64,000 nt of DNA, taken from NCBI GenBank assembly GCA_965213625.1, contig CBDBZU010000004.1:832001-896000 (forward strand), written 5' to 3'. Source of the DNA: a bacterium. Its GTDB lineage: Bacteria; UBA8248. The notes under the pieces were generated by a model. It was not told the DNA's origin, did no database searches, and saw nothing but the letters and a program-made list of their open reading frames with translations. Made by a program: the position numbers and the translations under genes. Shown here piece after piece: positions 22,556 to 48,789 of this stretch (within the stretch, counting starts at the first letter, position 1; each line of letters starts with the position of its first letter).

Positions 22556-24077
22556 GGGGTCTGTTGAAAAACCCGGTGTTGGAAGCGGGCGTTTTGGCGG
22601 CTCACGCGGCGGCGGGGAGGCAGCCCAATCGGCGCGTGAGGGCGCCATGTGCGCGCAGCCGGCGTCTCCGGGCGGCACAGGCCGTCCACAAGGCGAATAT
22701 ACGCGCCGCAAAAGCGGCGGCCAGCCGCTTGAGGTTCACCGCTATCGCCGTCAGGTAGGACTGGATCCGCATGTTCGCAAGGCCCCGGCGCACCGCCCGC
22801 CCCAGTCCGTGCCGGCTCTTCGCCTCGCCGTGGTAGCCCTCCGAGCGCCAACGGTGGCGGCCATAGAGACGCTTCTCCTCCTCCCCCCAGCGCGCATGCC
22901 ACCGACGCGCGCGCAACAGCGCCGGATACGCGTGCGGAATCAACACCGTCCTGCTCGTGCGCGACTTCGACAGACAATCGGGCCTGAGCGCGCAGCCCGC
23001 GCAATCCCGCGTCTTCGATACATAGGAGCGCCCCCGCTCCGTCGCCTGCCGGGGGCGCAGCGTCTTGCCTCCCGGACACTTCACCACCTCGTTGCGCGCG
23101 TCGTAGTGGAACAACTGCAGCGGAACACGGCTCTGGCTGGGTTCCTTCTTCGCTGGTATCAGCGCTTCCACGCCCCGCCGCTCCAATTCGCCATAAACCT
23201 TCGAGTACGCGTACCCCGAATCCGCCGTCACCATCTCCGGCGTGCGGCCCGACAACTCGCTTACCGCCTCTATATGGGACGCCATCATCTCACGCTCGTT
23301 CCGCGTCCCCTCCGTCACCGACACGTCGAGAACAACACCCCGCTCATCGTCCACCGCCGCGTGCTGCTTGTAGCTCGGCTCGAACCCCGCCCGCGCGCTC
23401 TTGCGCGCAAGCCGCGCGTCCGGGTCCGTCCGGCTCACCGGACCCCCGCCACCGCGGCCTCCTCCCTTCTTCCCGACCTCATCATCGACGGGATTCTCCT
23501 GAATCACCTTCTCCGCGTGGTGCGCCGCCAGGCTCTCCCAGCTCACGTCCGCGCGTATCAACGAGGCGTCCACGTGCACCACTTCCCCCTTCGCCACATT
23601 CGCCTCCAGGCAAGCCTGCACCGTGCGACGGAATATCTCCTTGAACCGTGCCTCCCCCCAGCGCTGACGTATCCGCGTCAGGCTCGAATGATGCGGCAAC
23701 TCCTCGTGCAGCCCGTACCCGATGAACCACCGGATCGCCAGGTGCGCACGCGCCTCGCGAAGCAGGCGACGGTCGTGAACGTAGCCCAGCAACATACCCG
23801 CCAGCATCAAGCGGAGCGCCACCTCCGGGTCGATCCCCGGACGACCGTTATCCGCGCAATAGCAATCCGCCACCTCCTCCCGTAGCCAGCTCAAATCCAG
23901 TACGTGGTCCACGCGCATCAGGACGTGATCCTCGGGGATCAGCCGTTCCAGCGAACCGGCCACGAACAAATCCATCTGCTCGCGCCTCTTGCTGCCTATC
24001 ATCGAGGGAACTCCCATCTCGGGCGAGATAGTGTCATTACACCCAATCACAATGCCGGGGCTTTTTCAACAGCCCCT
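22556..24077 (-). mobile_element. IS1182-family insertion sequence, copy 3 (complete, 1,522 bp, TTGA/TCAA duplication)
   Basis: Reverse complement of copy 2 with very few SNPs. TTGA occurs at both 22552-22555 and 24078-24081. Confidence 0.95.
22602..24050 (-). CDS. IS1182-family DDE transposase
   Basis: 482 aa, identical to copy 2 except R to W in RARR(R/W)HARW. Confidence 0.95.
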   Translation of the reverse strand: MIGCNDTISPEMGVPSMIGSKRREQMDLFVAGSLERLIPEDHVLMRVDHVLDLSWLREEVADCYCADNGRPGIDPEVALRLMLAGMLLGYVHDRRLLREARAHLAIRWFIGYGLHEELPHHSSLTRIRQRWGEARFKEIFRRTVQACLEANVAKGEVVHVDASLIRADVSWESLAAHHAEKVIQENPVDDEVGKKGGGRGGGGPVSRTDPDARLARKSARAGFEPSYKQHAAVDDERGVVLDVSVTEGTRNEREMMASHIEAVSELSGRTPEMVTADSGYAYSKVYGELERRGVEALIPAKKEPSQSRVPLQLFHYDARNEVVKCPGGKTLRPRQATERGRSYVSKTRDCAGCALRPDCLSKSRTSRTVLIPHAYPALLRARRWHARWGEEEKRLYGRHRWRSEGYHGEAKSRHGLGRAVRRGLANMRIQSYLTAIAVNLKRLAAAFAARIFALWTACAARRRRLRAHGALTRRLGCLPAAA

Positions 24078-29288: not shown

Positions 29289-30323
29289 GTGAGCGCATCT
29301 CCGGTGGATGAATTCGAGTATTTCTTCGATAAAGCCTGGTCGGACGGCCTGCCGGTCATCCCCCCGACGGAAGAGCGCATGGGCCTCATGCTGGCGGGGA
29401 CGGGCCGCGACCCGGATGAAGTCATCGGCGATGTGCCCCCATTGCTGGCGCAGGCTGACGTTCGGACCATCGCAGTTCATGCCGTCATGGCCGGATGCAA
29501 ACCGGCGTATATGCCCGTCCTCATCGGAGCCGTGGAAGCCATTCTGGAGGAAAAATTCAACGTGGGCGGCGTGCAGGCGACGCTCTCCTGCGCGGCTCCC
29601 CTGCTGATCGTGAACGGCCCTTACGCCAGGGATATCGGCCTGCACGGCGGGCTGGGCTGCTTCGGCCCCGGAAACAGGGCGAACGCGACGATTGGCCGCG
29701 CCATCAGGCTACTGCTCCTCAACATAGGCGGCGGAATTCCGGGCATCACCTCGATGAGCACGTTCTCGCAACCGGGCAGGTTCACGTATTGCATCGCCGA
29801 GAATGAAGCGGAAAGCCCCTGGGAGTCTCACGCTCAGACGAATGGTTTCGATGCGCAGGACAACGTCGTCACGGCCGTGCATGTGGAAGGCCCCGTCATG
29901 TCCTGGGATGACGTGAGCGACGACCCGGAATGCATGTTGCCCTCCATCGCGGACACCATGTCGCATCTGGGTTCGTGGAACTGCTGGGCCAGCACCGATT
30001 TGGTGGTGGCGATGAGCCCGCAGCAGGCCGCGATTTGCGCAAAGAGGGGGTATTCAAAGGCGGATGTCCATGGGCGTCTTTGCGAAATCGCAGGCCGTAC
30101 GGTGGGCGAACTCAAAACGGGCGGGCATTTCCGGGAAAATCGCATCAGGGATTTTCCGATCCCCGTCGATCTGGATGATGACGATGCGTTCGTTCCGACG
30201 ATTAAAGAGGCCCGGAGACTGCTCTTGATCGTGGCGGGCGGAATTCCGGGGCCGATGACGGCCGTGATGCATGGCTGGAACGGCAGTAGCCGCTCGGTTT
30301 CCCGCGCATTTCAATCGTCATGA
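29289..30323 (+). CDS. Uncharacterised ~340-aa protein, paralogue 1 of 4 (family usually seen beside UGSC selenoproteins)
   Basis: WSDGLPVIPPT, AVMAGC, NGPY, GCFGPG.RANATIGRA, AENEAESPW. GGAGG RBS before the GTG at 29289. Confidence 0.85.
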   Translation: MSASPVDEFEYFFDKAWSDGLPVIPPTEERMGLMLAGTGRDPDEVIGDVPPLLAQADVRTIAVHAVMAGCKPAYMPVLIGAVEAILEEKFNVGGVQATLSCAAPLLIVNGPYARDIGLHGGLGCFGPGNRANATIGRAIRLLLLNIGGGIPGITSMSTFSQPGRFTYCIAENEAESPWESHAQTNGFDAQDNVVTAVHVEGPVMSWDDVSDDPECMLPSIADTMSHLGSWNCWASTDLVVAMSPQQAAICAKRGYSKADVHGRLCEIAGRTVGELKTGGHFRENRIRDFPIPVDLDDDDAFVPTIKEARRLLLIVAGGIPGPMTAVMHGWNGSSRSVSRAFQSS

Positions 30324-30346
30324 TATCCACTTCTTTCAATGGGTGA

Positions 30347-31381
30347 ATGGCTTTGAGTGAACTTCAGGATGAATTCGAGTTTTTCCTCGAGAAACCCTGG
30401 TCGGACGGATTGCCCGTCGTCACCCCGACCGAAGAACGCATCGAGCGTATGCTCTCGGGCACGAAGAAAAGTCCGACTGAATTCATAGGCCTGGTACCTC
30501 CCGCCATGGGTGAGGCAACGGTCCATAACGTGGCGGTTCATGCGGTTATGGCCGGCTGTAAACCCGAGTACCTGCCGGTCGTTCTCGGCGCCACTTCGCT
30601 TATGCTTCGCGATGAATTCAACACGAACGGCGTGCAGGGCACGATGCACGGCGTGGCGCCCCTCATGATTGTAAACGGCCCCTATTCCGAGCAAATCGGG
30701 GTTCACGGAGGAAATGGCTGCTTTGGCCCCGGATTCAGGTCCAACGCTTCCATTGGCCGTGCCATTCGCCTGATTTTAATGAACCTCGGCGGGGGTATTC
30801 CGGGTGTTTCTTCGATGACGATTTTCGGCACGCCGCTGCGCTATACCGCGTGCGTAACGGAGAACCTTCAGTTTCATCCCTGGGAGACGCTCGCTGAATC
30901 CAGAGGATACGGATCGGATGAAAATGTAATCACCATGGCCATGGTGGAAAGCCCGCGCCTGACCTTCGATGACGTCAGCGAGGAGCCCGAGCGCCTGCTC
31001 CGGGGAATCGCCGATGCGATGACGGGCCTGGGCTCCTGGAACATGCACGCTCCCAGGACCGATATGGTTGTCGCCATGAATCCCCAGCATGCGAAAATTT
31101 GCTCCGAGGGCGGCCTCACGCGGGCGGACGTGCATCGGCGATTGTGTGAGCTGGCCGGCCACAAAGTGAAGGAGTTGAAAGGAGGCGGCAACTGGCGTCG
31201 CGAGCGCGCGCTGGATATGTATATTCATGTGGACCCCGATGATGATGAGTTTTTTGTTCCCGTCATCAAGGACCCCCGTGATCTGCATTTGATTGTCGCG
31301 GGCGGCTGGGGTTCGGGCAGCGCGGTATGCCATGGGTGGAGCGGCGGCAGCCGGGCCGTTCATGGGGCCTATGAGGTTTAG
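30347..31381 (+). CDS. Uncharacterised ~340-aa protein, paralogue 2 of 4
   Basis: Same motifs as paralogue 1. Confidence 0.85.
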   Translation: MALSELQDEFEFFLEKPWSDGLPVVTPTEERIERMLSGTKKSPTEFIGLVPPAMGEATVHNVAVHAVMAGCKPEYLPVVLGATSLMLRDEFNTNGVQGTMHGVAPLMIVNGPYSEQIGVHGGNGCFGPGFRSNASIGRAIRLILMNLGGGIPGVSSMTIFGTPLRYTACVTENLQFHPWETLAESRGYGSDENVITMAMVESPRLTFDDVSEEPERLLRGIADAMTGLGSWNMHAPRTDMVVAMNPQHAKICSEGGLTRADVHRRLCELAGHKVKELKGGGNWRRERALDMYIHVDPDDDEFFVPVIKDPRDLHLIVAGGWGSGSAVCHGWSGGSRAVHGAYEV

Positions 31382-31422
31382 CGCCGGAATCTCCACGACA
31401 GTCAGAGTGGTAACAGATCCCT

Positions 31423-32439
31423 ATGGATGAATTTGAATTTTTCTTTCAAAAATCCTGGTCGGATGGTCTGCCGGTAATCCCCCCAACCCAGGAACGGATG
31501 GCCACCATGCTCTCGGGCACCAGACTCGGGGCTTCGGAGGTCATTGGATTGGTGCCGCCCCTCATGGGAGAGGCCAGCGTTGAAGCTGTTGCCGCGCACG
31601 CCGTGATGGCGGGCTGTGAACCATCGTATTTGCCTGTCGTTCTTGCAGGACTCAGAGCGCTCCTTGCACCGAAACTCAACTTGAACGGCGTGCAGGGCAC
31701 CATGCACAGTGCAGCCCCTTTGATCATCGTGAATGGTCCATATGCGAAAATAATCGGTCTGCACGGCGGAACGGGGTGCTTTGGTCCGGGTTTTCGGGCG
31801 AATGCGACGATTGGCCGCGCCATCCGGCTTATGCTCATGAACCTGGGCGGCGGTGTGCCGGTTTCCGCCTCGATGAGCACGTTCGGCTCTCCTGCCAGAT
31901 ATACGTTTTGCATTGCCGAAAATGAAGCGGAAAGCCCTTGGGAGCCATTGTCCGTCACGAGAGGATTTCATCAGGATGACGATGTTGTAACCGCCGTGAT
32001 GACGGAGGCGCCTCAAGGATATATCGATGATTATTCAAAAGAGCCGGAATCTTTTTTTGTGGGTTTGGCGGATAAAATATCCACCCTGGGTTCACTGAAT
32101 ATCTGGCTGAAGACCCAGGTTGCTGTTGCTTTGGGTCCCGATCATGCGCACATGTGCGCGGATGCGGGTCTGGATAAAAAAGACGTACATCGCCGAATTA
32201 TGAAGCTTGCACGCAGGCCCTTGGGAGAGTTGAAAAAATCTGGTTATTGGCGTGAGGAGATGATTGCCAAGTGGACATTTGATCTCGACCTGCAGGATGA
32301 TTCTTTTATGGTACCGGCGATTAAGGATGAGGACGATCTGGTACTTCTCGTCGCAGGGGGTACGCCCGGGCCGGTGACGGCCGTCATGCCCGGTTGGGTG
32401 GATGGCAGCGAGGCGGTTTCAATTGATTATGAACCTTAA
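31423..32439 (+). CDS. Uncharacterised ~340-aa protein, paralogue 3 of 4
   Basis: Same motifs as paralogue 1. Confidence 0.85.
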   Translation: MDEFEFFFQKSWSDGLPVIPPTQERMATMLSGTRLGASEVIGLVPPLMGEASVEAVAAHAVMAGCEPSYLPVVLAGLRALLAPKLNLNGVQGTMHSAAPLIIVNGPYAKIIGLHGGTGCFGPGFRANATIGRAIRLMLMNLGGGVPVSASMSTFGSPARYTFCIAENEAESPWEPLSVTRGFHQDDDVVTAVMTEAPQGYIDDYSKEPESFFVGLADKISTLGSLNIWLKTQVAVALGPDHAHMCADAGLDKKDVHRRIMKLARRPLGELKKSGYWREEMIAKWTFDLDLQDDSFMVPAIKDEDDLVLLVAGGTPGPVTAVMPGWVDGSEAVSIDYEP

Positions 32440-32474
32440 GCCTTTCTTTTAGGCTTGGTTTTGAGGATTAGCGA

Positions 32475-33494
32475 ATGGATGAGTTTGAGTTTTTCTTTGA
32501 TAAAGAATGGTCGGATGGCCTACCCGTCGTGACCCCGACAGAAGAGCGAATCGGTTTGATGCTCTCGGGTACGACAAAAGAGCCGGGCGAAGTACTCGGC
32601 TGCGTGGCTCCGGCGGGCGCGGAACTCAGCGTACAAGGAGTGGCGGCCCACGCTGTTATGGCGGGCTGTAAGCCCGGGTATATGCCGGTGCTGATTGCCG
32701 GGCTGGAAGCGCTTTTAGATGAACGTTTTAACGTAAATCTGATTCAGGCTACGACGAGCGCGGGCGCTCCATTTCTTTTGGTCAATGGCCCCTATGCCAA
32801 AGAGGTCGGGCTGCATGGCGGTGTGGGCTGCATGGGTCCCGGCTTTCGCGCGAACCTGACCATTGGCCGCGCTGTGCGGCTCGTCATGATGAATGTGGGA
32901 GGCGGCATTCCCGGAATCACATGTCTCGGCGGTTTTGGAGGTCCCTGGCGAAGCACTTTTTGCATCATGGAGAACGAGGAGGAATCCCCTTGGGAGTCGT
33001 ATGCGGAATCCAAAGGATTTTCACAGAGCGATAACGTGGTGACCATGATTCCCCTCGAAGGGCCGGTGCAGGTATGGGACGATGCGAGTCTGACTCCTGA
33101 ACGGCTCCTGACGACGGTTGCCGACATGATGTCCGCATTGGGCGGTCCCAATATGTATCGACAAGCGGATATGGCGGTTGTCCTGGGTGCGCAACATGCG
33201 CATATTTGCGCTGACGCCGGGCTGACTCGCAGTGATGTCCATAAAAAATTACTGGAAACGGGTGGGCGCACAATAGGGGAGATAAAGCGCGGCGGCATCT
33301 GGCGAGGCGAGAAAGGCGCGGTTCGATGGCCATTTCCCGTGGACGTGAATGATGATGATTTTTTTGTGCCTGCGGTAGGAGATCCCGACGATCTTCATTT
33401 GATTGTCGCAGGTAGCAGGGGCTCACCTTCCAGCATGGTCATGCACGGAATTACCGTGGCGTGTCGTGCTGTGTCAAAAAGATTTGATGTGTGA
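32475..33494 (+). CDS. Uncharacterised ~340-aa protein, paralogue 4 of 4
   Basis: Same motifs as paralogue 1; most divergent in the variable loops. Confidence 0.85.
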   Translation: MDEFEFFFDKEWSDGLPVVTPTEERIGLMLSGTTKEPGEVLGCVAPAGAELSVQGVAAHAVMAGCKPGYMPVLIAGLEALLDERFNVNLIQATTSAGAPFLLVNGPYAKEVGLHGGVGCMGPGFRANLTIGRAVRLVMMNVGGGIPGITCLGGFGGPWRSTFCIMENEEESPWESYAESKGFSQSDNVVTMIPLEGPVQVWDDASLTPERLLTTVADMMSALGGPNMYRQADMAVVLGAQHAHICADAGLTRSDVHKKLLETGGRTIGEIKRGGIWRGEKGAVRWPFPVDVNDDDFFVPAVGDPDDLHLIVAGSRGSPSSMVMHGITVACRAVSKRFDV

Positions 33495-33619
33495 AAGGTT
33501 TTGTTTCCAAAAGATGGTGGACATAAGGCTGTAATTTCAGCAACATATATCTAAATTTCTAAAGACTCCAATCGGTCAGCTTTTTGTAATCCCAGATATG
33601 TAGTGTGCGTCCTTCAGAT

Positions 33620-33651
33620 AAGAGCCCCGACAAAATTGCCGGGGCTCTTTT
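33620..33651. terminator. Bidirectional rho-independent terminator
   Basis: AAGAGCCCCG-ACAAAATTGC-CGGGGCTCTTTT between convergent genes. Confidence 0.75.
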
Positions 33652-33665
33652 GTGATTAACGTTTG

Positions 33666-35927
33666 TTAATGGCCGTTGCTATTGCCGTTTTTCTTTATGA
33701 CCGCCCGGCAGACACGCTCGGGCGTGATGGGAAGGTCGTAGACTTCCGTGCCTATCGCATCATTGATGGCGAGGGCGACGGCTGCCGGCGCGTTATTGCA
33801 TGGGGGTTCTCCGACGCCGCGTGCGCCATATGGGCCTGCGCCCTCTCCACATTCAAGAACAACAGACTCAAACTCACCGATATCCGAGGAAGTGGGAATC
33901 AGATACTCGTGAAAGCTTTGTGATCGGCAGTCTCCTTCCACCATGGTGATTTCTTCATGCAGCGCATAGCCAATCCCCATCACCGCGCCGCCTTCGAATT
34001 GCCCTTCCACGCTTTGAGGATTCAGCGCTCGCCCGACATCATGGGAGGCGATGTGCTTCAAGAGATTCACTTCGCCGGTTTCGATATCGACCTCCACTTC
34101 GCTCGCATGAACGCCAAATGTGTAGTCCGACCATCCGCCCATACCGTTCATGTATCGCTGCGGGTTCTCGTATTCATGTCCCGGCATGTTGTAGCCATGG
34201 GTGCAATGCAGGGCTTCACCCATTTTTTTGGCTTCCCCAGCCGCAGCACCGATGCCAACCCTTCTCTCGGGAGCGGAGGCCACCCATGCCTCCCCACTTC
34301 CAACACGGATGTCCTCTTCAGAAGCTTCGAGCAACGAGGCGGCGCCTTTGGTCACGGCTTTCCGAACCTCGTCTGCGGCAAGTTGAACGGCATGCCCCGC
34401 CATGAGTGTCTGGCGAGAACCTGCAGTAATGCCTGAGAGTGGTGTAGTAGCGGAATCGGACAAACGGGTGGAAACCTGATCGAGCCTGAGCCCGAGGGTT
34501 TCAGCCGTTATGCTTTGAAGCGTAGCGCCCTGGCCGGCGCCTATGTCAGGCGCGCTTACACGTACTACGGCGCTGCCATCCGGCTCAAGGTGAACCGCCG
34601 CATTCGCATCGTCATTCGGCCTTCCGTAGCCGGTGATGTTCGCGGCCGCCGCCCGGCCGATACGTTTGCCCGGACCTGGTTCTGTGGGTTCACCCAGGGC
34701 CTGTAGCGCGCTGTCGAGGCATCCTTCCAGGTTCGGTTCGTAAGGTATCTTCTGTCCGGTCGGCAGTTCCTGTCCTTTCTGGATGAAATTTTTCCGCCTG
34801 AATTCGTACTTGTCCAACCCTAGGGCATCTGCAACCAGGTTCATTTGGGTCTCATATGCGAAGCAGACCTGGTTTGATCCGACACCGCGCATCGCGTTGG
34901 TGATGGGATTGTTCGTGAGGTAGCCGTGCGCACGAATTTTTGCGTTAGGGACATCGTAAGGGCCGGCGGCGATGCACATTGCGCCTAGGAGGAACAAGTT
35001 GGATTTATACGGATAGGCGCCAGCGTCTCCTACGATGTCCGCCTGTACGGCCAGGATTTTCCCGTCCTTGGTCGCTCCTGTTTTGTATTTCATATAGAAA
35101 GGGTGCTTTTTCGAGGTGTTTCGGATGCCGTGTTCGCGGCCCAACACCATAACGGCGGGCCTTTGCGTATGCCAGGTGAGCAGCGCCAGATAAGGTTCTA
35201 CGGTCAGCATGCCCTTGGCGCCGAACCCGCCGCCGACGTAAGTGCCGAGATGGCGGACGCGGCTATGCGAGATTCCTAAAATCGCTGCAATGGCGCGGTA
35301 GTATTCGATAAGCTGTGTGCCGACGCGGATGGTGATGACGCCGTCTTCTTCCATCCAGGAAGTACCGGAGGCCGGTTCCAGGAAGGCGTGTTCGGCGAGT
35401 TGCGTAGTGTATGTTTTCTCAATCACCACGTCGGCTTCGTCAAACGCTGTCTTCAAGTCTCCGCGGGTAACCTCAAAATCACACGCTTGTCGTTTTTCAG
35501 CGCTTGTTTCATCGTGACGCGTTGTCCACACGCCCTCTTCCGCCTCGATTTCCACTTCAATGGCCGCTATCGCGGCATCAAGCGCTTCTCTGTTTTCGGC
35601 TCCTACGATGGCGAGAGCGTCTCCCGTGAATTCAATTTTATCTTCCACCAGAACAGGCTGATGGGGCAGACCCGGCGTGCCGGAGCCGAATCGCGCGTTT
35701 GTGCCCGGAATATCCTTTGCAGTCAGAATGGCGGCAACGCCCGGGATTTTTTCGGCTTTTGAAGTGTCGAGTTTTTTCAGGCGGCCGACCGGGATGGGTG
35801 TAAACAATACGCCGCACTGCAGAGCCCCTGCAGGAACTGCATCTTCTCCGTAGGGCATAGAGCCATCCGCTTTCGGAATCGCGTCGTATCGAACATTCGA
35901 CTTGCCGATGATATCGTAATCGGCCAT
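33666..35927 (-). CDS. Xanthine-dehydrogenase-family molybdopterin-binding large subunit
   Basis: HAFLEP, YVGGGFGAK, AMRGVG, DIGAGQG, AGSR, DVGRALNP..VEGQFEGG, ARGVGEP. AAGGAG RBS before MADYD. Confidence 0.93.
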   Translation of the reverse strand: MADYDIIGKSNVRYDAIPKADGSMPYGEDAVPAGALQCGVLFTPIPVGRLKKLDTSKAEKIPGVAAILTAKDIPGTNARFGSGTPGLPHQPVLVEDKIEFTGDALAIVGAENREALDAAIAAIEVEIEAEEGVWTTRHDETSAEKRQACDFEVTRGDLKTAFDEADVVIEKTYTTQLAEHAFLEPASGTSWMEEDGVITIRVGTQLIEYYRAIAAILGISHSRVRHLGTYVGGGFGAKGMLTVEPYLALLTWHTQRPAVMVLGREHGIRNTSKKHPFYMKYKTGATKDGKILAVQADIVGDAGAYPYKSNLFLLGAMCIAAGPYDVPNAKIRAHGYLTNNPITNAMRGVGSNQVCFAYETQMNLVADALGLDKYEFRRKNFIQKGQELPTGQKIPYEPNLEGCLDSALQALGEPTEPGPGKRIGRAAAANITGYGRPNDDANAAVHLEPDGSAVVRVSAPDIGAGQGATLQSITAETLGLRLDQVSTRLSDSATTPLSGITAGSRQTLMAGHAVQLAADEVRKAVTKGAASLLEASEEDIRVGSGEAWVASAPERRVGIGAAAGEAKKMGEALHCTHGYNMPGHEYENPQRYMNGMGGWSDYTFGVHASEVEVDIETGEVNLLKHIASHDVGRALNPQSVEGQFEGGAVMGIGYALHEEITMVEGDCRSQSFHEYLIPTSSDIGEFESVVLECGEGAGPYGARGVGEPPCNNAPAAVALAINDAIGTEVYDLPITPERVCRAVIKKNGNSNGH

Positions 35928-36120
35928 ATGTCTGCTCCTTAAGGTAAGAGGATATCCGTGAATTAGACTTGATTCTGCCAAATTTCGGCGCAACTGAGAA
36001 GCGGACAATTCATCATTTGTTTTTTCATCTAAAATTGATTGTGTTGATATCGTAGACAAGGAATAAATTGCGGGATATGATTTGGCCACGGTTGAATTCA
36101 CATATCAATTGGAGAAAACC

Positions 36121-36651
36121 ATGGCGAACGGAATGGGATTCATTGATCCGACGGCGGGAGGGTCGGCCGCGCGAATCGAACTTGCGCAAAGGCCCGGCGA
36201 TCTTTCGGGTAAGGTGGTGGGGCTCCTCGACAACACCAAAGAACAAGCGGATATCATTTTGGAAACCTTGGGGAATGCCCTCCGTGAGCAATACGACGTG
36301 GCCAGAGTCATTTCGATGCGAAAAGAGCATTACTCGAAGCCTGCCACTGATGAAATGATCGAAGAAATGGCCCAGGAGGTGGATGTGGCGATAGCCGCAT
36401 TGGGAGGCTGAGGCTCCTGCACGTTGTGCAGTGTGCACGACACGGTTGAATTTGAAAAACGGGGCATTCCTTCAACGACCATTATTACCGAGGCGTTCAA
36501 GAACGCGGCGGACTTTCAATTCCGTGGCAAGGGCATGGAAGGGCATCCTTATATTCAGTTGCCTCATCCGGTCAGTAATTTACAGCCTGATGAAATGAGA
36601 GACACGACGCTGAAGTTTGTCGAAGAAGTAGCCGGCCACCTGAAAAGCTGA
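36121..36651 (+). CDS. UGSC-family selenoprotein, 176 aa, Sec97 (TGA at 36409-36411)
   Basis: ORFs 36082-36411 and 36424-36651 are in one frame and read ALGG-TGA-GSCTLCSVHD..EKRGIP..LPHP. A hairpin follows the TGA. Confidence 0.88.
36423..36441 (+). promoter_or_regulatory. Candidate bacterial SECIS element
   Basis: GTTGTGCA-GTG-TGCACGAC 8-bp stem beginning 11 nt after the UGA, with a G-initiated loop. Confidence 0.6.
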
Positions 36652-36692
36652 TCCAAATTATAGAGAAAAGTATTTTCCAGGAGGAAAGGTAC

Positions 36693-37475
36693 GTGCGCGA
36701 ATTTGAAACAATTTCCTATACGGAAGAAGATGGATTGGCGGTAGTGAAGTTCAACCGCCCGGAGAGTCTGAACGCGATAAGTTTCAAGATGGCGGAAGAA
36801 TTCGTGGAACTGGCGCGAACCTTGGCCGACGCGCAGAATGTGCGTGTGGTCATTCTTACTGGAGAGGGACGTGGTTTCAGTACGGGGCGCGATCTGAAAG
36901 AAAGCACCACGCATACGAAGGAGATGGCCGATCAATACCAGCGCTATGTGATGACGGCGACGTCTCTATGGGCACGCTTGCCAATGCCTACCATCGCCGC
37001 GATCAACGGCCATACGTTCGGCTGGGGCGTCGAAATTACCTTGGTATGCGATATCAGGCTTGCAGCAGTTGAAGCCACTCTTTGTTTTCCGGAGTGCAGC
37101 CTTGGTATTTTCCCGGGGGCCGGCGGCGTGGTCTGGCTTCAAAGAGTCATGCCGGCCGGACAGGCGAAGGAATTGGTTTACACAAGCAAGAGGATCGATG
37201 GAAAAGAAGCCGAGCGTATCGGCTTGGTGAATAAGGCGCATCCGCTGGACGTGCTGATGGATGAAGCGACAGCCATCGCTGAGAAGATAAGGGACAATGG
37301 CCCCTTGGGTGTTCGTGGCGCGAAAAAAGCAATTGACCAGACGCTCGATATGCCGCTTTCTCAGGCTATCGAATTTTCAAATGCCCTCAGGTTGCCGTTG
37401 AATCACACCAAGGATTTCGCCGAGGCGCTGCAGGCGTTCAAAGAGAAGAGGAAACCAGTATTTACCGGAGAATAA
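36693..37475 (+). CDS. Enoyl-CoA hydratase/isomerase family protein
   Basis: NRPESLNA, FSTGRDL, GWGVE, FPECSLGIFPGAGG; both catalytic Glu positions present. Confidence 0.93.
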   Translation: MREFETISYTEEDGLAVVKFNRPESLNAISFKMAEEFVELARTLADAQNVRVVILTGEGRGFSTGRDLKESTTHTKEMADQYQRYVMTATSLWARLPMPTIAAINGHTFGWGVEITLVCDIRLAAVEATLCFPECSLGIFPGAGGVVWLQRVMPAGQAKELVYTSKRIDGKEAERIGLVNKAHPLDVLMDEATAIAEKIRDNGPLGVRGAKKAIDQTLDMPLSQAIEFSNALRLPLNHTKDFAEALQAFKEKRKPVFTGE

Positions 37476-37502
37476 AGAAGTTGGAATTTCCATGAAACAT
37501 AG

Positions 37503-37532
37503 AGCCTGTCCCATTTAGAGGACGGGCTTTTT
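37503..37532 (+). terminator. Rho-independent terminator
   Basis: AGCCTGTCC-CATTTAGA-GGACGGGCT-TTTT. Confidence 0.65.
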
Positions 37533-37549
37533 GTTCATTGTGGCGGGAT

Positions 37550-38251
37550 ATGAATAGAAACCTCCTCATCACACATAATGAATCCCAAGTCGCGAGCATT
37601 ACCGTGAATCGGCCGGAAGCGCGAAATGCTTTCAACACGGCATTGATGGAAGCCATGTGTAAGGAAATGGAGGATATTAAAAAGACGCCGGACATTAAAG
37701 TCCTTATCGTGACGGGCGCGGGAAGCTCTTTTTCTTCGGGACGCGATCTCAAGGAAAGCGCCACCCATACGAAAGAACAAGTGAAGCGATTCATGATTTT
37801 GGGCGAGCGGTGGAGCACGGCTCTTCGTGAACTACCCATTCCGACAATAGCAGCGGTGAATGGACCCGCTTTCGGATGGGGGATGGTGTTGATGCTCTCT
37901 TGCGATATTCGTGTTGCAGTGGACGCCGCCGTTTTGGGTTATCCGGAAACTGCGTTGGGAGTATTTCCGGGAGGAGACGCCACAGTTCGTCTGACGCGTC
38001 AGATTTTTGTTCCATTCGTGAAAGATTTAGTGCTCACCGGCAGAAGATTTGATGCGCGAGAGGGATATCGCTTAGGATTGGTGAATCGCATCACATCGCA
38101 AAGAGACCTGATGAAGGAAACTCGCGCTCTGGCGAATAAAATTGCGCAACATCCGCCGGAGAGATTAAGAGAGTTGAAATCAAAGTTTTTGAAAATCGAA
38201 GCGATGCCGCGTTTTGGCCATTTGTCGGTAGCCGAGAAATTCGATCGATGA
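37550..38251 (+). CDS. Enoyl-CoA hydratase/isomerase family protein (second, degenerate paralogue)
   Basis: NRPEARNA, FSSGRDLKES, GWGMV (first Glu absent), YPETALG. Confidence 0.88.
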   Translation: MNRNLLITHNESQVASITVNRPEARNAFNTALMEAMCKEMEDIKKTPDIKVLIVTGAGSSFSSGRDLKESATHTKEQVKRFMILGERWSTALRELPIPTIAAVNGPAFGWGMVLMLSCDIRVAVDAAVLGYPETALGVFPGGDATVRLTRQIFVPFVKDLVLTGRRFDAREGYRLGLVNRITSQRDLMKETRALANKIAQHPPERLRELKSKFLKIEAMPRFGHLSVAEKFDR

Positions 38252-38631
38252 AAGTCAGGGAGTGCTTTTTGCAGGCTGTAGCGATCGTTGGAGTGGAGGA
38301 AGACGCCAGAGAAACCTGGGCGGCAATGAATAGGATAAACGCGCCTTGGGCGGCGGTTTTTGATGGTATGCACCTGATTGGCGTTGTAAGCAAAATAGAC
38401 CTCGATGCGTTTCTTCGTGTGCCCGAGGTATTTCAAGAAGTGGGAGAGATTGCCAAAACGGATATGCCTTCGAGGAGAGGGATATCGCTGTCCCCGAACA
38501 CGGATTTGAACGAGGCTGTTATTCGGCTTGAGCTCGCGGGAGCGGATGCCGCTTTTGTCGAAGGCGTCGGCAGGCCGCATGGCGTCATGGCGATGGAAGC
38601 AGCCAATCACGCATTGTCTCGTTCTTCTTGA
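38248..38631 (+). CDS. CBS-domain-like protein
   Basis: MKVRE..; V-x-D-x3-LIGVVSKIDL; LSPNTDLNEAV..GRPHGVM resembles a CBS pair. Confidence 0.55.
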   Translation: MKVRECFLQAVAIVGVEEDARETWAAMNRINAPWAAVFDGMHLIGVVSKIDLDAFLRVPEVFQEVGEIAKTDMPSRRGISLSPNTDLNEAVIRLELAGADAAFVEGVGRPHGVMAMEAANHALSRSS

Positions 38632-38706
38632 TGCGCATTTGTTTTCCCTTAGGGTAGCCGAATCATTCGCCTCTCTTTCAGGGGGTGATTGGCGGGAGGA
38701 GCGTCC

Positions 38707-39903
38707 ATGGAATTCACTTTGAATGATGAGCAAAAACGGATTCAGGGAATAGCCAGGAAATTTTCCTATGAAGAACTTGCCCCGGTGGCTCCCGAGCGTG
38801 ATCGGATTCAGAACTGGGAAGAACGCATGCCGTGGGATCTGACCGAAAAAGCGAGCGCTTTGGGCTTAAGGCAACTTCCATACCCTAAAGAATATGGCGG
38901 AATGGGTGCCGATGTGCTTTCGTGTTGTTTGGCAGGCGAGGAACTTGCCGCGGGTGATCTGGGTTTTGCGGTGAACCTTGACCAGACCTGGAAGCTGTCC
39001 CATATCCTGGAAAAAGTAGAGCCTGAAGTCAGAGATCCCTGGATTAAACGCTTGTGCGAAGAACCGAGGTTCCTGGCTGCGATTTCCATGACGGAAGAAG
39101 GAGCAGGGACAGACCATCAGGGCTATTACGATGATCCCTCCATCGCGCTTTATGCGCATGCGGAGAAAGAAGGTGGAAAATGGATCATCAATGGCAAGAA
39201 ACGCTATGTCAGCAATGGTCCTATAGCATCGTTGTACGTATTGGCGGCGAGAACCGACCTCAGTAAAAACTTGAGGGAAGGTTTAACCGGCTTTCTGGTT
39301 CCAAGAGAGACCCCCGGCATATCGATAGGCGAGGTGCATGAAAAAATTGGCCAGCGTCTTTCTATGAATTCAGAAATTTTCTATGAAGACATCGAGATCC
39401 CCGAAAACCATATTATCTTAGGTGAAGGAAACATGTTCGAAATCAGGGGGAATCTCCTATCGATGGGGAAACCGGAAGCAGCCGCTACAGCCTTGGGCGT
39501 TGGACGCGCCGCGTTCGAGAAAGCGCTGGCTTACAGCCGCGAACGTGTCCAGGGCGGCAAGCCCATCGGCCAGCACCAGGCGATAGAATCCATACTCGCT
39601 GATATGGCGATGAATCTGGACATTGCGCGCACATATATCTGGCGCACCGCCTGGGCTGTGGACCATCAAAAGCCTTATGATTTCACGCAAGGATGGAAAT
39701 GCAAAATTTTCGCTTCAGAGGTCGCCTTTGATTGCGCGCGTCTGGGCATGGAGGTATTCGGCGGCGCAGGCATCATGCACGACGCTCCCATGGAGAAATA
39801 CCTTCGCGATGCCAGTACGTTCTTGCATTCAGACGGCACGAATCAAATCTTGCGGTTGAGAACCGGGCAAGCCTATGTGAAAGGAGTGGCTACGGCGTTT
39901 TAG
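38707..39903 (+). CDS. Acyl-CoA dehydrogenase family protein
   Basis: MEFTLNDEQ, PKEYGG, MTEEGAGTD, INGKKRYVSNG, ERVQGGKPI, FGGAG, DGTNQI. Confidence 0.93.
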   Translation: MEFTLNDEQKRIQGIARKFSYEELAPVAPERDRIQNWEERMPWDLTEKASALGLRQLPYPKEYGGMGADVLSCCLAGEELAAGDLGFAVNLDQTWKLSHILEKVEPEVRDPWIKRLCEEPRFLAAISMTEEGAGTDHQGYYDDPSIALYAHAEKEGGKWIINGKKRYVSNGPIASLYVLAARTDLSKNLREGLTGFLVPRETPGISIGEVHEKIGQRLSMNSEIFYEDIEIPENHIILGEGNMFEIRGNLLSMGKPEAAATALGVGRAAFEKALAYSRERVQGGKPIGQHQAIESILADMAMNLDIARTYIWRTAWAVDHQKPYDFTQGWKCKIFASEVAFDCARLGMEVFGGAGIMHDAPMEKYLRDASTFLHSDGTNQILRLRTGQAYVKGVATAF

Positions 39904-39926
39904 CGGTATAAAAGGGGGAATTTTTT

Positions 39927-40478
39927 ATGACGCGCCGGGTGGATAAATGGCGGCAGGGTGAATTGTTCCAGAAAGACGGTGAATCTCTGGAAAATCATGT
40001 TGCCGAATGGCTCCAGAAAGTGCGTGCGGAATTCTCCGTGTTTGTATCGGATAAAGGTATTGTGGAAATTAGAATGTTGAATGGCGTGGAAAAGCCTCTC
40101 GTGGCGGATCATGCGAGTGAGCAATCAACGCCGTTGAGTCGTCGAGCCTCAAAAGAGATAAAAGAGTATCTGGAGGGAACGCGAAAAAGTTTCGATTTGA
40201 AGACAGACCTCTCCTCCCTCACGCCTTTCATGATCAAAGTATTAATTGAGACGGAAAATATTCCTTATGGCGAGACGCGTTCTTACGGCTGGGTGGCGAA
40301 TCAAATTGGAAACCCGAAAGCTTCGCGTGCCGTAGGCCAGGCGTTACATAGAAATCCCGTTCCTCTTGTAATACCATGACACCGCGTTATCGCGAGCTCG
40401 GGCGAGCTCGGTGGGTTCGCAAGCAGCGTTTCTTTGAAGGTGGCGCTCTTGGCTCATGAGATGTATCACAAAAATTAG
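39927..40478 (+). CDS. ogt: Methylated-DNA--protein-cysteine methyltransferase with catalytic selenocysteine (Sec151, TGA at 40377-40379), 183 aa
   Basis: IPYGETRSY, RAVGQAL, NPVPLVIP-TGA-HRVIASSGELGGF..K..LLAHE. The TGA sits exactly at the Cys of the PCHR motif. Confidence 0.88.
40393..40410 (+). promoter_or_regulatory. Candidate bacterial SECIS element
   Basis: CGAGCTC-GGGC-GAGCTCG hairpin beginning 13 nt after the UGA. Confidence 0.6.
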
Positions 40479-40529
40479 GGTATGCGGATTTTGCTTGGGC
40501 GCATCCTAAAAAAACTTGGGGGATGAAAG

Positions 40530-41105
40530 ATGTCAATAATGATGAATGATTTTATCGACCAAGTACGCGAAATTGTAAATACAGGAGGTACCGAAGAAGA
40601 AGTTACTGCTCGCGTAGCGGTGGTCCTTGAATCGATTTTGGATGAGCCGAACCTGTTGAGTGCCGACCAACTGTTAGTGAAAAAAGAAGGTTTTACGCTC
40701 AACCGGATTCACATAGAGCCGGATGAGAGCTTCTCTATAGGCGCCGGTATATGGGATGTGGGCCAGACCACCCCGATTCATGATCATGGTACCTGGGGAG
40801 TGATAGGCATTTACCGAGGAATGGAAAACGAAGAGAGTTTTTTGCGAGAAGGTCCGCGCGAAGAGGGCGCTCGCGTAAATCTTACGCCGCAGGGGAAACG
40901 CCTGGCAGGGCCTGGGGATGTTTTCGTCTGCTGTACGAAGGACCAAGATGTGCACCGCGTAAGCTGTGCTTCGCCTGAGCCTGTTGTGGGTATTCATGTC
41001 TATGGCGATGATCTCGCCAAGTTGACGCGCTATAAATATGAGGAATCAACCGGCGAGGTGAACTTGTTTGTCACAGGATGGGATTATGCGAAAATCTCCG
41101 ATTGA
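40530..41105 (+). CDS. Cysteine/3-mercaptopropionate dioxygenase-like cupin
   Basis: W-x-x-GQTTPIHDHGTWG, DVHRV, GIHVYG (3-His site plus Tyr). Confidence 0.8.
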   Translation: MSIMMNDFIDQVREIVNTGGTEEEVTARVAVVLESILDEPNLLSADQLLVKKEGFTLNRIHIEPDESFSIGAGIWDVGQTTPIHDHGTWGVIGIYRGMENEESFLREGPREEGARVNLTPQGKRLAGPGDVFVCCTKDQDVHRVSCASPEPVVGIHVYGDDLAKLTRYKYEESTGEVNLFVTGWDYAKISD

Positions 41106-47606: not shown

Positions 47607-48789
47607 GTGGCGCAAGAAACGGCGGATGCCGTCGTCATTGGTGGTGGTGTGATGGGATGTTCCATCGCCTATCAGTTGGCGAAACGAGGTTTTGGAAAAA
47701 TTATCCTTTGTGAACGCGATGGCATCGCATCTGGTTCCACGGGCGGGTCTTCGGCGCTTTTTCGCATGCACTATTCAAATACAAGCACCATTCAGATGGC
47801 TTGGCGGTCTCTGTTGGCGTTTGAGGGGTTCGAGGAATATTCCGAGGGCAGACAAGCTGGATTCATGCAAACCGGATATTTGGTGCTGGCGAATGATTCT
47901 CTTCGTAATGGCGTGAAAAAAATGTAGAACTTGCACAATCCCTCGGAGTAGAAACGTACTGGATTAAAAAAGAGGAAATTTCTCGACACACGCCCCATGG
48001 GCCCAACTGGAAGATTTAGTGGGTGCGGCTTACGAACCGAGAAGCGGGTATGCTGATCCACATGGAGTGACATCTGGATTTGCGGAAGGTGCGAAAAAAT
48101 ATGGTGCGCAAATACGACAGAATTGTTCTGTGATTGGGGTCAAATTCGATAGCTCAGGTTTGGTATGCGTTGAGACCTTTCGGGATGTTATCGATACTCC
48201 GGTTGTCGTGAACGCTTCCGGGGCTTGGGTGAATAAGGTGGCCGCTTTCAGCGGACACCAATTTCCGGCGGAGGCCATCCGAGAACAAGATACGGTTTTT
48301 TATGCCGTGGGCAGAGATGGCGAGAGGGTTGAATTTGTCGTCTATGATGGTCCGACGCGTTTGTACTACCGCCCGGAGGGGCGAGATTTACTCCTCATAG
48401 GTCGCGACAATATAGAACCCGAGTATGTCGACCCGGATGATTTCAACAAAAAAGGAGACATGGATTTCGTGCTCGATGTTCTGGAGAGGATGCAAAAGCG
48501 TTGGCCCTACTTTGAAAATGCGAAACTATTCCGTGGCTGGGGTTGCTTGTACTGCATTACGCCGGATTGGATGCCCATTCTTGATCGTTACCCCGAAGTG
48601 CCGGGTTACTACATTTGCACAGGGATGAGCGGCCATGGCTTCAAGTTGGCGCCCGCTGTGGGAGAGATGATGGCGGAGTTGATCATGACCGGAAGTTGTG
48701 AGGAGCCGGATATCAGCGACTATCGCCTGGCTCGTTTTGATGAAGGCGATTTGATGCAAAGTGTTTTCGGAACAGGGTTTCAGGGCTGA
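47607..48789 (+). pseudogene. FAD-dependent oxidoreductase (DAO/sarcosine oxidase beta-like), interrupted by two frameshifts
   Basis: GGGVMG dinucleotide-binding N-terminus (47607-47927) and C-terminal YEP..GYADP, TPD..PI, GMSGHGFK (48019-48789) lie in different frames. They are bridged by a third frame at 47924-47990. Confidence 0.8.

Follow-up and report, generated by a model that had tools for sequence, protein, structure and literature searches.

A UGSC selenoprotein and its recurrent partner family P340 in a bacterium of the UBA8248 lineage

The window analyzed here, a 64,000-nucleotide (nt) stretch of contig CBDBZU010000004.1 (positions 832,001–896,000) from a bacterium of the UBA8248 lineage, carries between positions 29,289 and 41,105 a gene for a UGSC selenoprotein and four tandem genes of a family of ~340 amino acids (aa) that we call P340. 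Our analysis gives good support to the view that UGSC and P340 work together. The two are encoded together, often fused, and predicted to bind; UGSC encodes selenocysteine (Sec), and thiol-disulfide redox modules occur fused to P340. The combination suggests that P340 is a catalytic protein relying on thiol/selenol-disulfide exchange and that UGSC is its dedicated partner, and we lean, with somewhat better than even confidence, towards a two-part thiol/selenol reductase acting on some substrate, the locus in the window being one copy of a widespread module. The pair is widely conserved, and among the genes of this 12-kb region only UGSC and P340 recur broadly. An earlier note, made from the sequence of the window, had described the genes of the region and proposed that they form a single selenium-dependent catabolic system; the listing of open reading frames (ORFs) and the family scans place every gene where it was described. 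The P340 and UGSC genes and the signals of the latter are as follows.

29226/29289–30323, + strand: P340 paralogue a ('Unknown_1' family, UGSC partner), from the ORF listing; 56% identical to paralogue b
30347–31381, + strand: P340 paralogue b, 344 aa; model with a predicted local distance difference test score (pLDDT) of 95.0
31423–32439, + strand: P340 paralogue c, 338 aa; 55% identical to b
32475–33494, + strand: P340 paralogue d, 339 aa; 53% identical to b
36053–36081, + strand: promoter-like site 5' of UGSC, 10/12 consensus positions
36121–36651, + strand: UGSC selenoprotein, 176 aa, Sec97 in U-G-S-C
36409–36411, + strand: TGA, the Sec97 codon of UGSC, in a G-G-U-G-S-C-T motif
36423–36441, + strand: hairpin of UGSC resembling a Sec insertion sequence (SECIS), 8 bp with loop GUG, beginning 14 nt after the UGA

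The longest ORF of paralogue a starts at ATG 29226, and the family alignment starts near GTG 29289. No Pfam or NCBIfam family matches any of the four P340 paralogues. Promoter-like sites are as numerous in the region as expected by chance.

A genome scan with the P340 alignment, using one genome per species, returned 571 confirmed places, from which 80 loci in other genomes were kept. A same-strand UGSC gene lies within 1.5 kb of P340 in 67 of these 80 loci; P340 precedes UGSC in 40 of them and follows it in 27. The 13 others include locus L025, where UGSC is 3.9 kb away, and four loci at contig ends or on short contigs. The titles of the loci span many bacterial phyla and two archaeal lineages; archaeal-titled loci with a P340–UGSC pair include one whose title names a haloarchaeon (L029) and one whose title names a Nitrosocosmicus metagenome-assembled genome (L055). 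The genome of the window itself has eight UGSC genes, each with one TGA, and 15 P340 genes. All eight UGSC genes lie within 3 kb of a P340 gene, and seven are directly adjacent or fused to one; the UGSC gene of the window is 2.7 kb from the P340 array, with an XDH-like gene in between. The eight loci are at contig positions 447625, 615901, 723695, 764256, 868142, 1635364, 2489553, and 3987809. At contig 615901–618522, a UGSC–P340 fusion is followed by a second P340 gene, and one UGSC copy of the genome reads U-G-S-S and so lacks the second cysteine.

UGSC is also the most frequent fusion partner of P340. Among 63 representatives longer than 400 aa, 34 contain UGSC, two AhpC/Redoxin, one a thioredoxin-reductase-like domain, and one FeThRed_B (the ferredoxin-thioredoxin reductase catalytic chain, FTR-B), and 25 have no Pfam family at all, tandem P340–P340 forms among them. 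Among 70 proteins longer than 602 aa, 47 contain UGSC, six a thioredoxin-reductase-type domain, and one each AhpC/TSA, a glyoxalase, and a methyltransferase, leaving 14 with none. Many of the 34 UGSC fusions begin or end at the Sec position, as expected, because gene callers stop at TGA. In the fusion sequences listed, the redoxin domain carries a C-x-x-C motif as C-A-T-C and the reductase domain as C-A-V-C.

A physical interaction is predicted as well. The two domains of P0237, a natural Cys-form fusion from another organism, were cut apart and modeled as a complex with no alignments. The test was passed with 0.83, compared with 0.00 for the best of three controls; the passing mark admits 51 of 78 solved complexes along with 2 of 108 mismatched pairs. 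Three runs shared at least 91% of the contacts, with a partner pLDDT of at least 85. The confident contacts join UGSC residues 12–24 to W227, P235–P238 (a W...P-P-T motif), and residues 262–277 and 351–364 of the P340 domain in the model. The stretch 262–277 ends three residues before the invariant Cys of A-V-M-A-G-C. The N-terminal tail of UGSC, which holds the family-invariant P10, has low pLDDT in the monomer model of the window protein. Gene adjacency (67/80 loci, and 8/8 in the genome), fusion (34/63 and 47/70), and the complex test all agree with the proposal of the earlier note that the Sec protein works with the ~340-aa proteins. Its idea that one Sec subunit serves several such partners does not hold as a rule, the usual ratio being one UGSC gene to one P340 gene.

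P340 is a family already seen in print under another name. Supplementary Figure S1A of Zhang and Gladyshev (2008; PMC2398784) depicts a 'UGSC/Unknown_1' fusion with the block A-V-N-G-V-M-A-G-C-R-P-E-Y-M-P, and P340 is, judging by the shared motif A-V-M-A-G-C-x-P-E-Y-x-P-V, the 'Unknown_1' domain. Since the P340 paralogues carry this motif, the UGSC–P340 link has been in print since 2008, as a fusion without a function. What differs in the window is the arrangement: compared with that published fusion, the genes are separate, one UGSC gene accompanies four partners, and the XDH-like gene lies between them.

The family is very large. HMMER searches of 1.84 billion representatives at 50% identity found 4705 clusters at E 1e-3, 3125 at 1e-10, and 1031 at 1e-30, and a word-based search found 6381 P340 proteins among 8000 scored. 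None of the 120 matches listed has a Pfam family, their names being only 'hypothetical protein' or an automatic tag, and the protein atlas returned only unannotated clusters. In an unbiased alignment of 66 P340 sequences, C71 (in A-V-M-A-G-C) and C169 are at least 90% conserved. N133 and R138 are invariant and E172 near-invariant in the family alignment A1, and all three are unchanged in 88 of 88 copies from the loci. Position 169 holds a cysteine in 63 of the 72 copies adjacent to UGSC and in all 16 that are not. The P340 model is of high quality (pLDDT 95.0; predicted template modeling score 0.93). The closest Foldseek match to it in the PDB, class I fumarate hydratase, had E 1.3e-3 and TM 0.28, with none at E ≤1e-3. 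Among 48,161 chains compared by VIA-align, the best Z was 5.5 and none reached 8, and a sequence search of solved chains with the P340 profile gave a best E of 0.24. On this model, P340 matches no fold that we searched, and we do not claim a new fold.

The UGSC protein of the window is a full member of its family by its scores (PF24696, 173.2 bits for a cut-off of 25; NF041046, 148.9 bits for a cut-off of 125), by its U-G-S-C motif, and by the position of its TGA. Across 73 sequences, the U/C column and the following G are invariant, and S99 and C100 are near-invariant. The model (pLDDT 94.4) predicts a generic three-layer α/β fold of flavodoxin/Rossmann type, with Sec97 at the start of a helix. 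It matches flavodoxin-, CheY-, and SDR-like folds, with 316 chains at Z ≥8 and the best Z, 11.7, to a designed protein; no thioredoxin is among the matches listed. Published UGSC reports, where they describe the family, note the fusion and guess a thioredoxin-like fold (suggested in 2008), in contrast to this model. Sequence searches of solved structures reached a best E of 0.93 with UGSC alone and 0.14 with the UGSC profile. UGSC is among the most abundant selenoprotein families of aquatic metagenomes, with 255 sequences in 37 Global Ocean Sampling (GOS) samples (PMC2398784, Table 2). A 2026 review counts it among the families whose biological functions are largely uncharacterized (PMC13188914), and no function is assigned to it in the relevant parts of PMC2398784, PMC9312934, and PMC13188914. 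The same three sources (PMC2398784 in its Table 2) list both UGSC-containing proteins and methylated-DNA-protein-cysteine methyltransferase as selenoprotein families. The UGSC–P340 pair is thus a recognized association, as a fusion since 2008, that is functionally uncharacterized.

The second of these families concerns a further gene of the region, an Ogt-type alkyltransferase with its own in-frame TGA, and comparison of homologous genes indicates that the TGA codons of both genes are real Sec sites. In UGSC, the TGA stands at the motif in 66 of 69 near-full-length homologs from other genomes, four partial matches being left out of the count; two of the others have Cys and one lacks the motif. 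The Ogt TGA is retained in all eight related genes compared, from the window, six congeners, and L025. Among the 120 UGSC relatives listed, 97 are exactly 96 aa long and end just before Sec, and none covers more than 66% of the query. The genome encodes the machinery for Sec, with selB (388 bits), selA (564 bits), selD (333 bits), and tRNA-Sec (75.9 bits) all above their cut-offs. The catabolic proposal had made this machinery a point on which it could fail, and because the machinery is present, no objection arises there. SelD itself carries one in-frame TGA (contig 1518852–1519814).

Each TGA is followed by a hairpin, as the earlier note had recognized, with 8 bp in each case. Folded as single sequences, the two hairpins are no more stable than shuffles (z −0.56 and −0.94; 43/200 and 34/200 shuffles as stable). 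When the 60 nt that start at the TGA are aligned without gaps for 74 UGSC genes, 73 of them distinct, an 8-bp stem is seen to be conserved at positions 15–22/26–33. For the 73 distinct genes, 89.2% of the stem cells are paired, compared with 81.9 ± 0.8 in shuffles, and 35 cells are changed on both sides, compared with 12.8 ± 2.4, with 0 of 500 shuffles as high in either case. Sliding the 3' partners by one to three columns leaves only 11.6–54.8% of the cells paired. At the column pair 21/27, 44 sequences have CG and 28 have GC. The Ogt hairpin is kept in the eight relatives, with one compensatory double change (C-G to U-A) in one of the eight sequences. The UGSC stem also imposes covariation on the protein (window 36427–36435, alignment columns 19–27): Cys TGC goes with Val GTG, and Trp TGG with Ile ATC, and the protein variants accordingly read T-S-C-S-V-H-D or T-S-W-S-I-H-D.

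In the mechanism that we favor, the four ~340-aa proteins would be diverged catalytic and substrate-binding subunits of a thiol/selenol-dependent reductase. Each turnover would leave C71 of P340 oxidized or carrying an adduct, with C169 usually acting alongside it. UGSC would dock next to C71 through its conserved N-terminal tail, and Sec97/Cys100 (U-x-x-C) would then resolve the oxidized P340, giving a selenenylsulfide on UGSC that a thioredoxin-type system would re-reduce. What we infer in this scheme is how C71 and C169 act, which way electrons flow, and the reductive nature of the reaction.

Thioredoxin-dependent thiol reductases that use a catalytic and a resolving cysteine include the methionine sulfoxide reductases, the peroxiredoxins, and arsenate reductase. 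P340 resembles them in its two conserved cysteines, in its redoxin, thioredoxin-reductase-like, and FTR-B fusions, and in having a dedicated small redox partner. It differs in that it has no sequence or fold relation to them and in that its partner is a selenoprotein predicted to have a flavodoxin/Rossmann-like fold.

The genes around the pair, with the signals that accompany them, are the following.

33666–36101, − strand: XDH-family molybdenum-binding large subunit, divergent from UGSC; MoCoBD_1 224.9 bits, MoCoBD_2 215.8 bits, Ald_Xan_dh_C
36693–37475, + strand: crotonase 1 (enoyl-CoA hydratase/isomerase, ECH1); ECH_1 205.6 bits
37501–37530, + strand: terminator-like hairpin, 11 pairs, then a T-run
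37538–38251, + strand: crotonase 2 (ECH2), 237 aa; ECH_1 162.2 bits, only profile positions 3–205 of 251
38248–38631, + strand: 127-aa protein with a weak CBS-domain match, 17.8 bits for a cut-off of 24
38689–39903, + strand: acyl-CoA dehydrogenase (ACAD) family, generic, from profile scans
39927–40478, + strand: Sec-Ogt/MGMT-type alkyltransferase, 183 aa, Sec151 replacing the acceptor Cys; PF01035 104.1 bits, TIGR00589 102.3 bits
40377–40379, + strand: TGA, the Sec151 codon of Ogt, in V-I-P-U-H-R-V
40394–40420, + strand: two overlapping candidate SECIS hairpins after the Ogt UGA, from folding and the 8-sequence comparison
40530–41105, + strand: cupin related to 3-mercaptopropionate/cysteine dioxygenases; solved chains at E 1.6e-20 and 1.1e-18

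No Rfam family reaches its gathering score anywhere in the window. The earlier note had placed a terminator at 37503 that might separate UGSC and ECH1 from the later genes. A hairpin with a T-run is indeed present at 37501–37530, with the longest stem of 15 such sites, but sites of this kind are as frequent as chance predicts (15.7 ± 4.8), and one RNA contig of a relative crosses the hairpin (37371–37599).

Our comparison suggests that the XDH-like subunit, the crotonases, ACAD, and the cupin form a lineage-specific neighborhood of the UGSC–P340 locus. When the window proteins were searched with phmmer against six-frame translations of the 80 loci, XDH-like, Ogt, and cupin were each found in one locus (L025 only), crotonase matches in 14, and ACAD matches in 6. 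The expectation that these families co-occur across genomes is borne out for UGSC with P340 (67/80) and not for the remainder of the region. Clustering of 662 ORFs within 6 kb of the pair in the 80 loci revealed no neighbor family in more than nine: TctC and SDR neighbors each occur in 9/80 loci, CoA-transferase III and Zn-ADH-like in 8/80 each, ACAD in 7/80, ECH and amidohydrolase in 5/80 each, and MmgE/PrpD, luciferase-like, and TauD in 4/80 each. At the seven other UGSC loci of the genome, the neighbors are CoA-transferase III (two loci), ACAD (one), luciferase-like monooxygenases, TctABC, ABC transporters, and aminotransferases. The theme is loosely one of carboxylate and acyl-CoA catabolism, in families common in such genomes, and no third partner is constant.

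The genus itself differs from this. All six congeners compared keep the order P340 array, XDH-like, UGSC, ECH1, ECH2, CBS-like, ACAD, Sec-Ogt, cupin, apart from one without an ECH2 match (L107) and one without a CBS match (L106). L025 has a shorter form of the locus, without ECH2 and ACAD, and the CBS-like 127-aa protein is present in five of seven relatives' loci examined. Such synteny within a genus is expected from common descent and is therefore weak evidence of shared function. The crotonases and ACAD have only generic ECH and ACAD family matches in Pfam and NCBIfam; the best solved relatives of ACAD are medium-chain acyl-CoA dehydrogenases, and on the 3-sulfinopropanoyl-CoA desulfinase model NF042439 it scores 163 bits for a cut-off of 600. 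The cupin scores 16 bits on Pfam CDO_I, below the cut-off of 23, and matches solved mercaptopropionate and cysteine dioxygenase chains at E 1.6e-20 to 6e-17. Like these homologs (6xb9, 3uss/4tlf, 4wvz), to which it aligns over residues 5–189, it has a T-P-x-H-D-H metal motif, but its linkage to P340 and UGSC is confined to this lineage.

Three RNA libraries of one study hold contigs of a close relative, 90–99% alike to the window, that overlap portions of the XDH-like gene and cover both crotonases, ACAD, Ogt, and the cupin. One spans the whole UGSC ORF across the UGA (36089–36669, 13 differences). The contigs come from the relative, may include carried-over DNA, and do not report transcript levels or ends. 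None covers 31400–33494 of the window, where two P340 genes were compared, which says nothing about the expression of these genes.

The XDH-like gene reaches no NCBIfam equivalog cut-off, and its best solved relatives are nicotinate dehydrogenase (PDB 3hrd, 3.5e-79) and the α subunit of 4-hydroxybenzoyl-CoA reductase (1.9e-72). Its orthologs, 88–98% identical, occur in 18 of 18 genomes of the genus, and the best match outside the genus is 47–48% identical. Its immediate neighbors are P340 and UGSC, and neither an Fe-S nor an FAD subunit gene adjoins it, the FAD subunit not having been searched for. As for the 2Fe-2S subunit, the genome has four PF01799 genes, at 1.91, 2.45, 2.99, and 3.73 Mb, the nearest more than 1 Mb away. 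Three of the four XDH-like large subunits of the genome (contig 606081–608441, 865669–868101, and 3972186–3974423) lie within 15 kb of a UGSC locus, at distances of 41 bp, 7.5 kb, and 12.2 kb, and none of the three has a 2Fe-2S subunit gene nearby. YqeC is a marker of selenium-dependent molybdenum hydroxylases, and the two YqeC genes of the genome (contig 599594 and 2482830) each have a UGSC locus in the vicinity, at 5 and 16 kb.

The second TGA gene is, by its family scores and acceptor motif, a Sec form of O6-alkylguanine-DNA alkyltransferase. It exceeds the cut-offs of PF01035 (27 bits) and TIGR00589 (46.4 bits), and the acceptor motif P-C-H-R-V reads P-U-H-R-V. The earlier note had placed both TGA codons at predicted catalytic cysteines but had not named this gene, a DNA-repair-type alkyltransferase. 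Sec-Ogt most likely serves DNA repair and not the UGSC–P340 module. It adjoins the cupin in all eight related genomes. The genome has a second Ogt/Ada-type domain, a Cys copy without an internal stop in a 359-aa frame (contig 2789848–2790087), and Sec-Ogt is therefore not the sole alkyltransferase. The window protein shares both domains with the known Sec methylated-DNA-protein-cysteine methyltransferase family and has Sec at the acceptor position. Published Sec forms are rare, with one Sec sequence against 2,879 Cys homologs in the GOS table (PMC2398784), whereas this lineage keeps the TGA in 8 of 8 genes. Sec-Ogt thus offers a clean natural case for the role of selenium in a single-turnover alkyl acceptor.

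Several observations weigh against the two-part reductase. UGSC is not always required: eight of the 80 P340 loci lack it although each flank extends for 1.4 kb or more (10 kb for five of these loci), and three of the genome's 15 P340 genes stand alone. C169 is absent from 9 of the 72 UGSC-adjacent P340 copies, and the 80-locus set was found through the pattern A-V-M-A-G-C, so that C71 is present there by construction. The fold predicted for UGSC is flavodoxin/Rossmann-like, with no thioredoxin among the matches listed. The modeled complex comes from a fusion of another organism, not from the window proteins, and contact between two domains of a single chain would be expected. It does place the UGSC tail on the P340 domain (P0237, 0.83). 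The confident contacts do not include the Sec/Cys position, and the model does not show the insertion of Sec97 into a P340 pocket that the earlier note had envisaged. Finally, 30 of the 73 UGSC proteins match GrdB weakly, which fits a catalytic role as well as that of a mere reductant, and sequence and model evidence here fit UGSC as catalytic nucleophile and as reductant alike.

The GrdB matches lead to an alternative that we consider rather unlikely, in which UGSC is a miniature selenoprotein B. On the model of the glycine, sarcosine, betaine, and D-proline reductases, its selenol would reductively cleave a C-N, C-S, or C-O bond next to the carboxyl group of a substrate held by P340, with P340 as the counterpart of GrdE or PrdA and the thioredoxin-type modules serving only to re-reduce the U-x-x-C selenenylsulfide. 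Scanned singly, the 73 UGSC proteins match the selenoprotein B models GrdB (TIGR01917) in 30 cases, GrdF in 14, TIGR01918 in 10, GrdH in 7, and PrdB in 2, always around Sec and at best with E 5.9e-6 to GrdB; residues 76–168 of the window protein align to GrdB positions 325–414, the region around its Sec. Because of these weak matches, UGSC may be distantly related to the Sec-bearing portion of selenoprotein B (GrdB, GrdF, GrdH, PrdB), which likewise works with a separate substrate-specific subunit and for which the same U-x-x-C motif is listed under PrdB and GrdB (PMC2398784, Table 2; PMC9312934). The many P340 paralogues per genome are what substrate-specific subunits would be expected to show, and the neighbors are often carboxylate/acyl-CoA enzymes or TctC carboxylate-binding proteins. 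All of the matches, however, are far below the family cut-offs (19.1 bits against 602.2 for the window protein on GrdB), and UGSC has ~170 aa where selenoprotein B has ~430. P340 is unlike GrdE or PrdA: none of 66 P340 proteins matched these or another NCBIfam model meaningfully, searching solved chains with the family profile yielded nothing, and no pyruvoyl-forming cleavage site is known for P340. UGSC is, moreover, common in oxic surface waters (PMC2398784), unlike the Stickland reductases. No Grd or Prd genes were seen in the stretch, grdA, grdC, and grdD not having been looked for.

Two further alternatives would draw the neighboring genes into the function of the pair. The whole 12 kb might be one selenium-dependent organosulfur or thioether pathway, in which the crotonases, ACAD, and the cupin consume the products of P340 and UGSC, essentially the system of the earlier note with its thiol and acyl-CoA products fed downstream. 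Gene order is kept with small losses in 6/6 congeners and in shorter form in L025, the XDH-like ortholog is present throughout the genus (18/18), and from ECH2 onward to the cupin no intergenic gap exceeds 57 nt. The cupin is similar to 3-mercaptopropionate dioxygenases of solved structure, other UGSC loci of the genome lie beside CoA-transferase III (two) and ACAD (one), and the relative's RNA contigs cover UGSC, both crotonases, ACAD, Ogt, and the cupin. Against this, genus-level synteny would follow from descent alone, and outside the genus the companions thin out (XDH-like, Ogt, and cupin in 1/80 loci, crotonase in 14, ACAD in 6, and no neighbor family in more than nine). ACAD is generic and misses the desulfinase model widely, a DNA-repair-type gene stands between it and the cupin, a terminator-like site follows ECH1, and the seven other UGSC loci of the genome have quite different neighbors. 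A single organosulfur pathway is unsupported because the neighbor order is only genus-wide (and partly shared by L025) and because the second TGA gene is Ogt/MGMT; we judge such a pathway decidedly unlikely, and C-S or C-N bond cleavage by the pair is a guess. Alternatively, instead of forming an enzyme themselves, P340 and UGSC might mature or repair molybdenum hydroxylases in a selenium-dependent manner, for example by passing labile Se or S to the orphan XDH-like subunit. The proximity of three of the four XDH-like subunits and of both YqeC genes to UGSC loci would fit, as would the want of a 2Fe-2S subunit gene near those large subunits and a closest solved relative, nicotinate dehydrogenase (3hrd), that is a selenium-dependent enzyme. 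Elsewhere, however, an XDH-like gene accompanies P340 in only 1/80 loci, unrelated housekeeping or transport genes separate the XDH-like genes from the other two UGSC loci, and the fusion partners of P340 are thiol-disulfide redox modules and not molybdenum-cofactor maturation proteins. We regard this last alternative as highly improbable.

With the two-part thiol/selenol reductase as the preferred reading, the significance of the pair lies in the near-obligate partner of UGSC being a very large family that has no Pfam or NCBIfam model and for which no solved fold relative was found. The pair and its fused redox modules make an experimental question of 'function unknown': what disulfide or selenenylsulfide is formed, what reductant supplies the pair, and what substrates the paralogues accept. 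The genome, with 8 UGSC and 15 P340 genes, and its genus are a good place to ask it. A bolder version, which we think very unlikely, would have P340 as a new enzyme fold that forms with UGSC a new class of selenium-dependent reductive lyases or reductases, each of the 15 paralogues of the genome taking a different small organic substrate. In this lineage, the tandem array would then be wired to a 3-mercaptopropionate-type dioxygenase and β-oxidation enzymes, with at least one paralogue releasing a thiol from a thioether or disulfide, in line with the proposal of the earlier note.

The region also stands out in base composition. GC content declines gene by gene from 0.607 at the first P340 copy to 0.497 at the cupin, within a low-GC island that runs from about position 31000 of the window to 64000 (GC 0.49–0.53; genome mean 0.591, standard deviation 0.030 in 20-kb bins). 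Both 20-kb bins of contig 860–900 kb are among the lowest 5% of the genome. A chimeric assembly as the source of the island was set aside, six congeners sharing the gene order. Downstream, a DAO-family FAD oxidoreductase is split into two ORFs (window 47607–47927 and 48019–48789, profile positions 1–96 and 136–353). It was considered as a third selenoprotein and rejected, the two pieces being in different frames; the gene looks like a frameshift or pseudogene and not a case of a Sec codon. Upstream, two DUF772/DDE transposase genes of 482 aa each, in opposite orientation (window 10851–12299, + strand; 22602–24050, − strand), flank ~10 kb of housekeeping genes that encode a HemN-like radical SAM protein, NFACT, YicC, guanylate kinase, CoaBC, and UDG.

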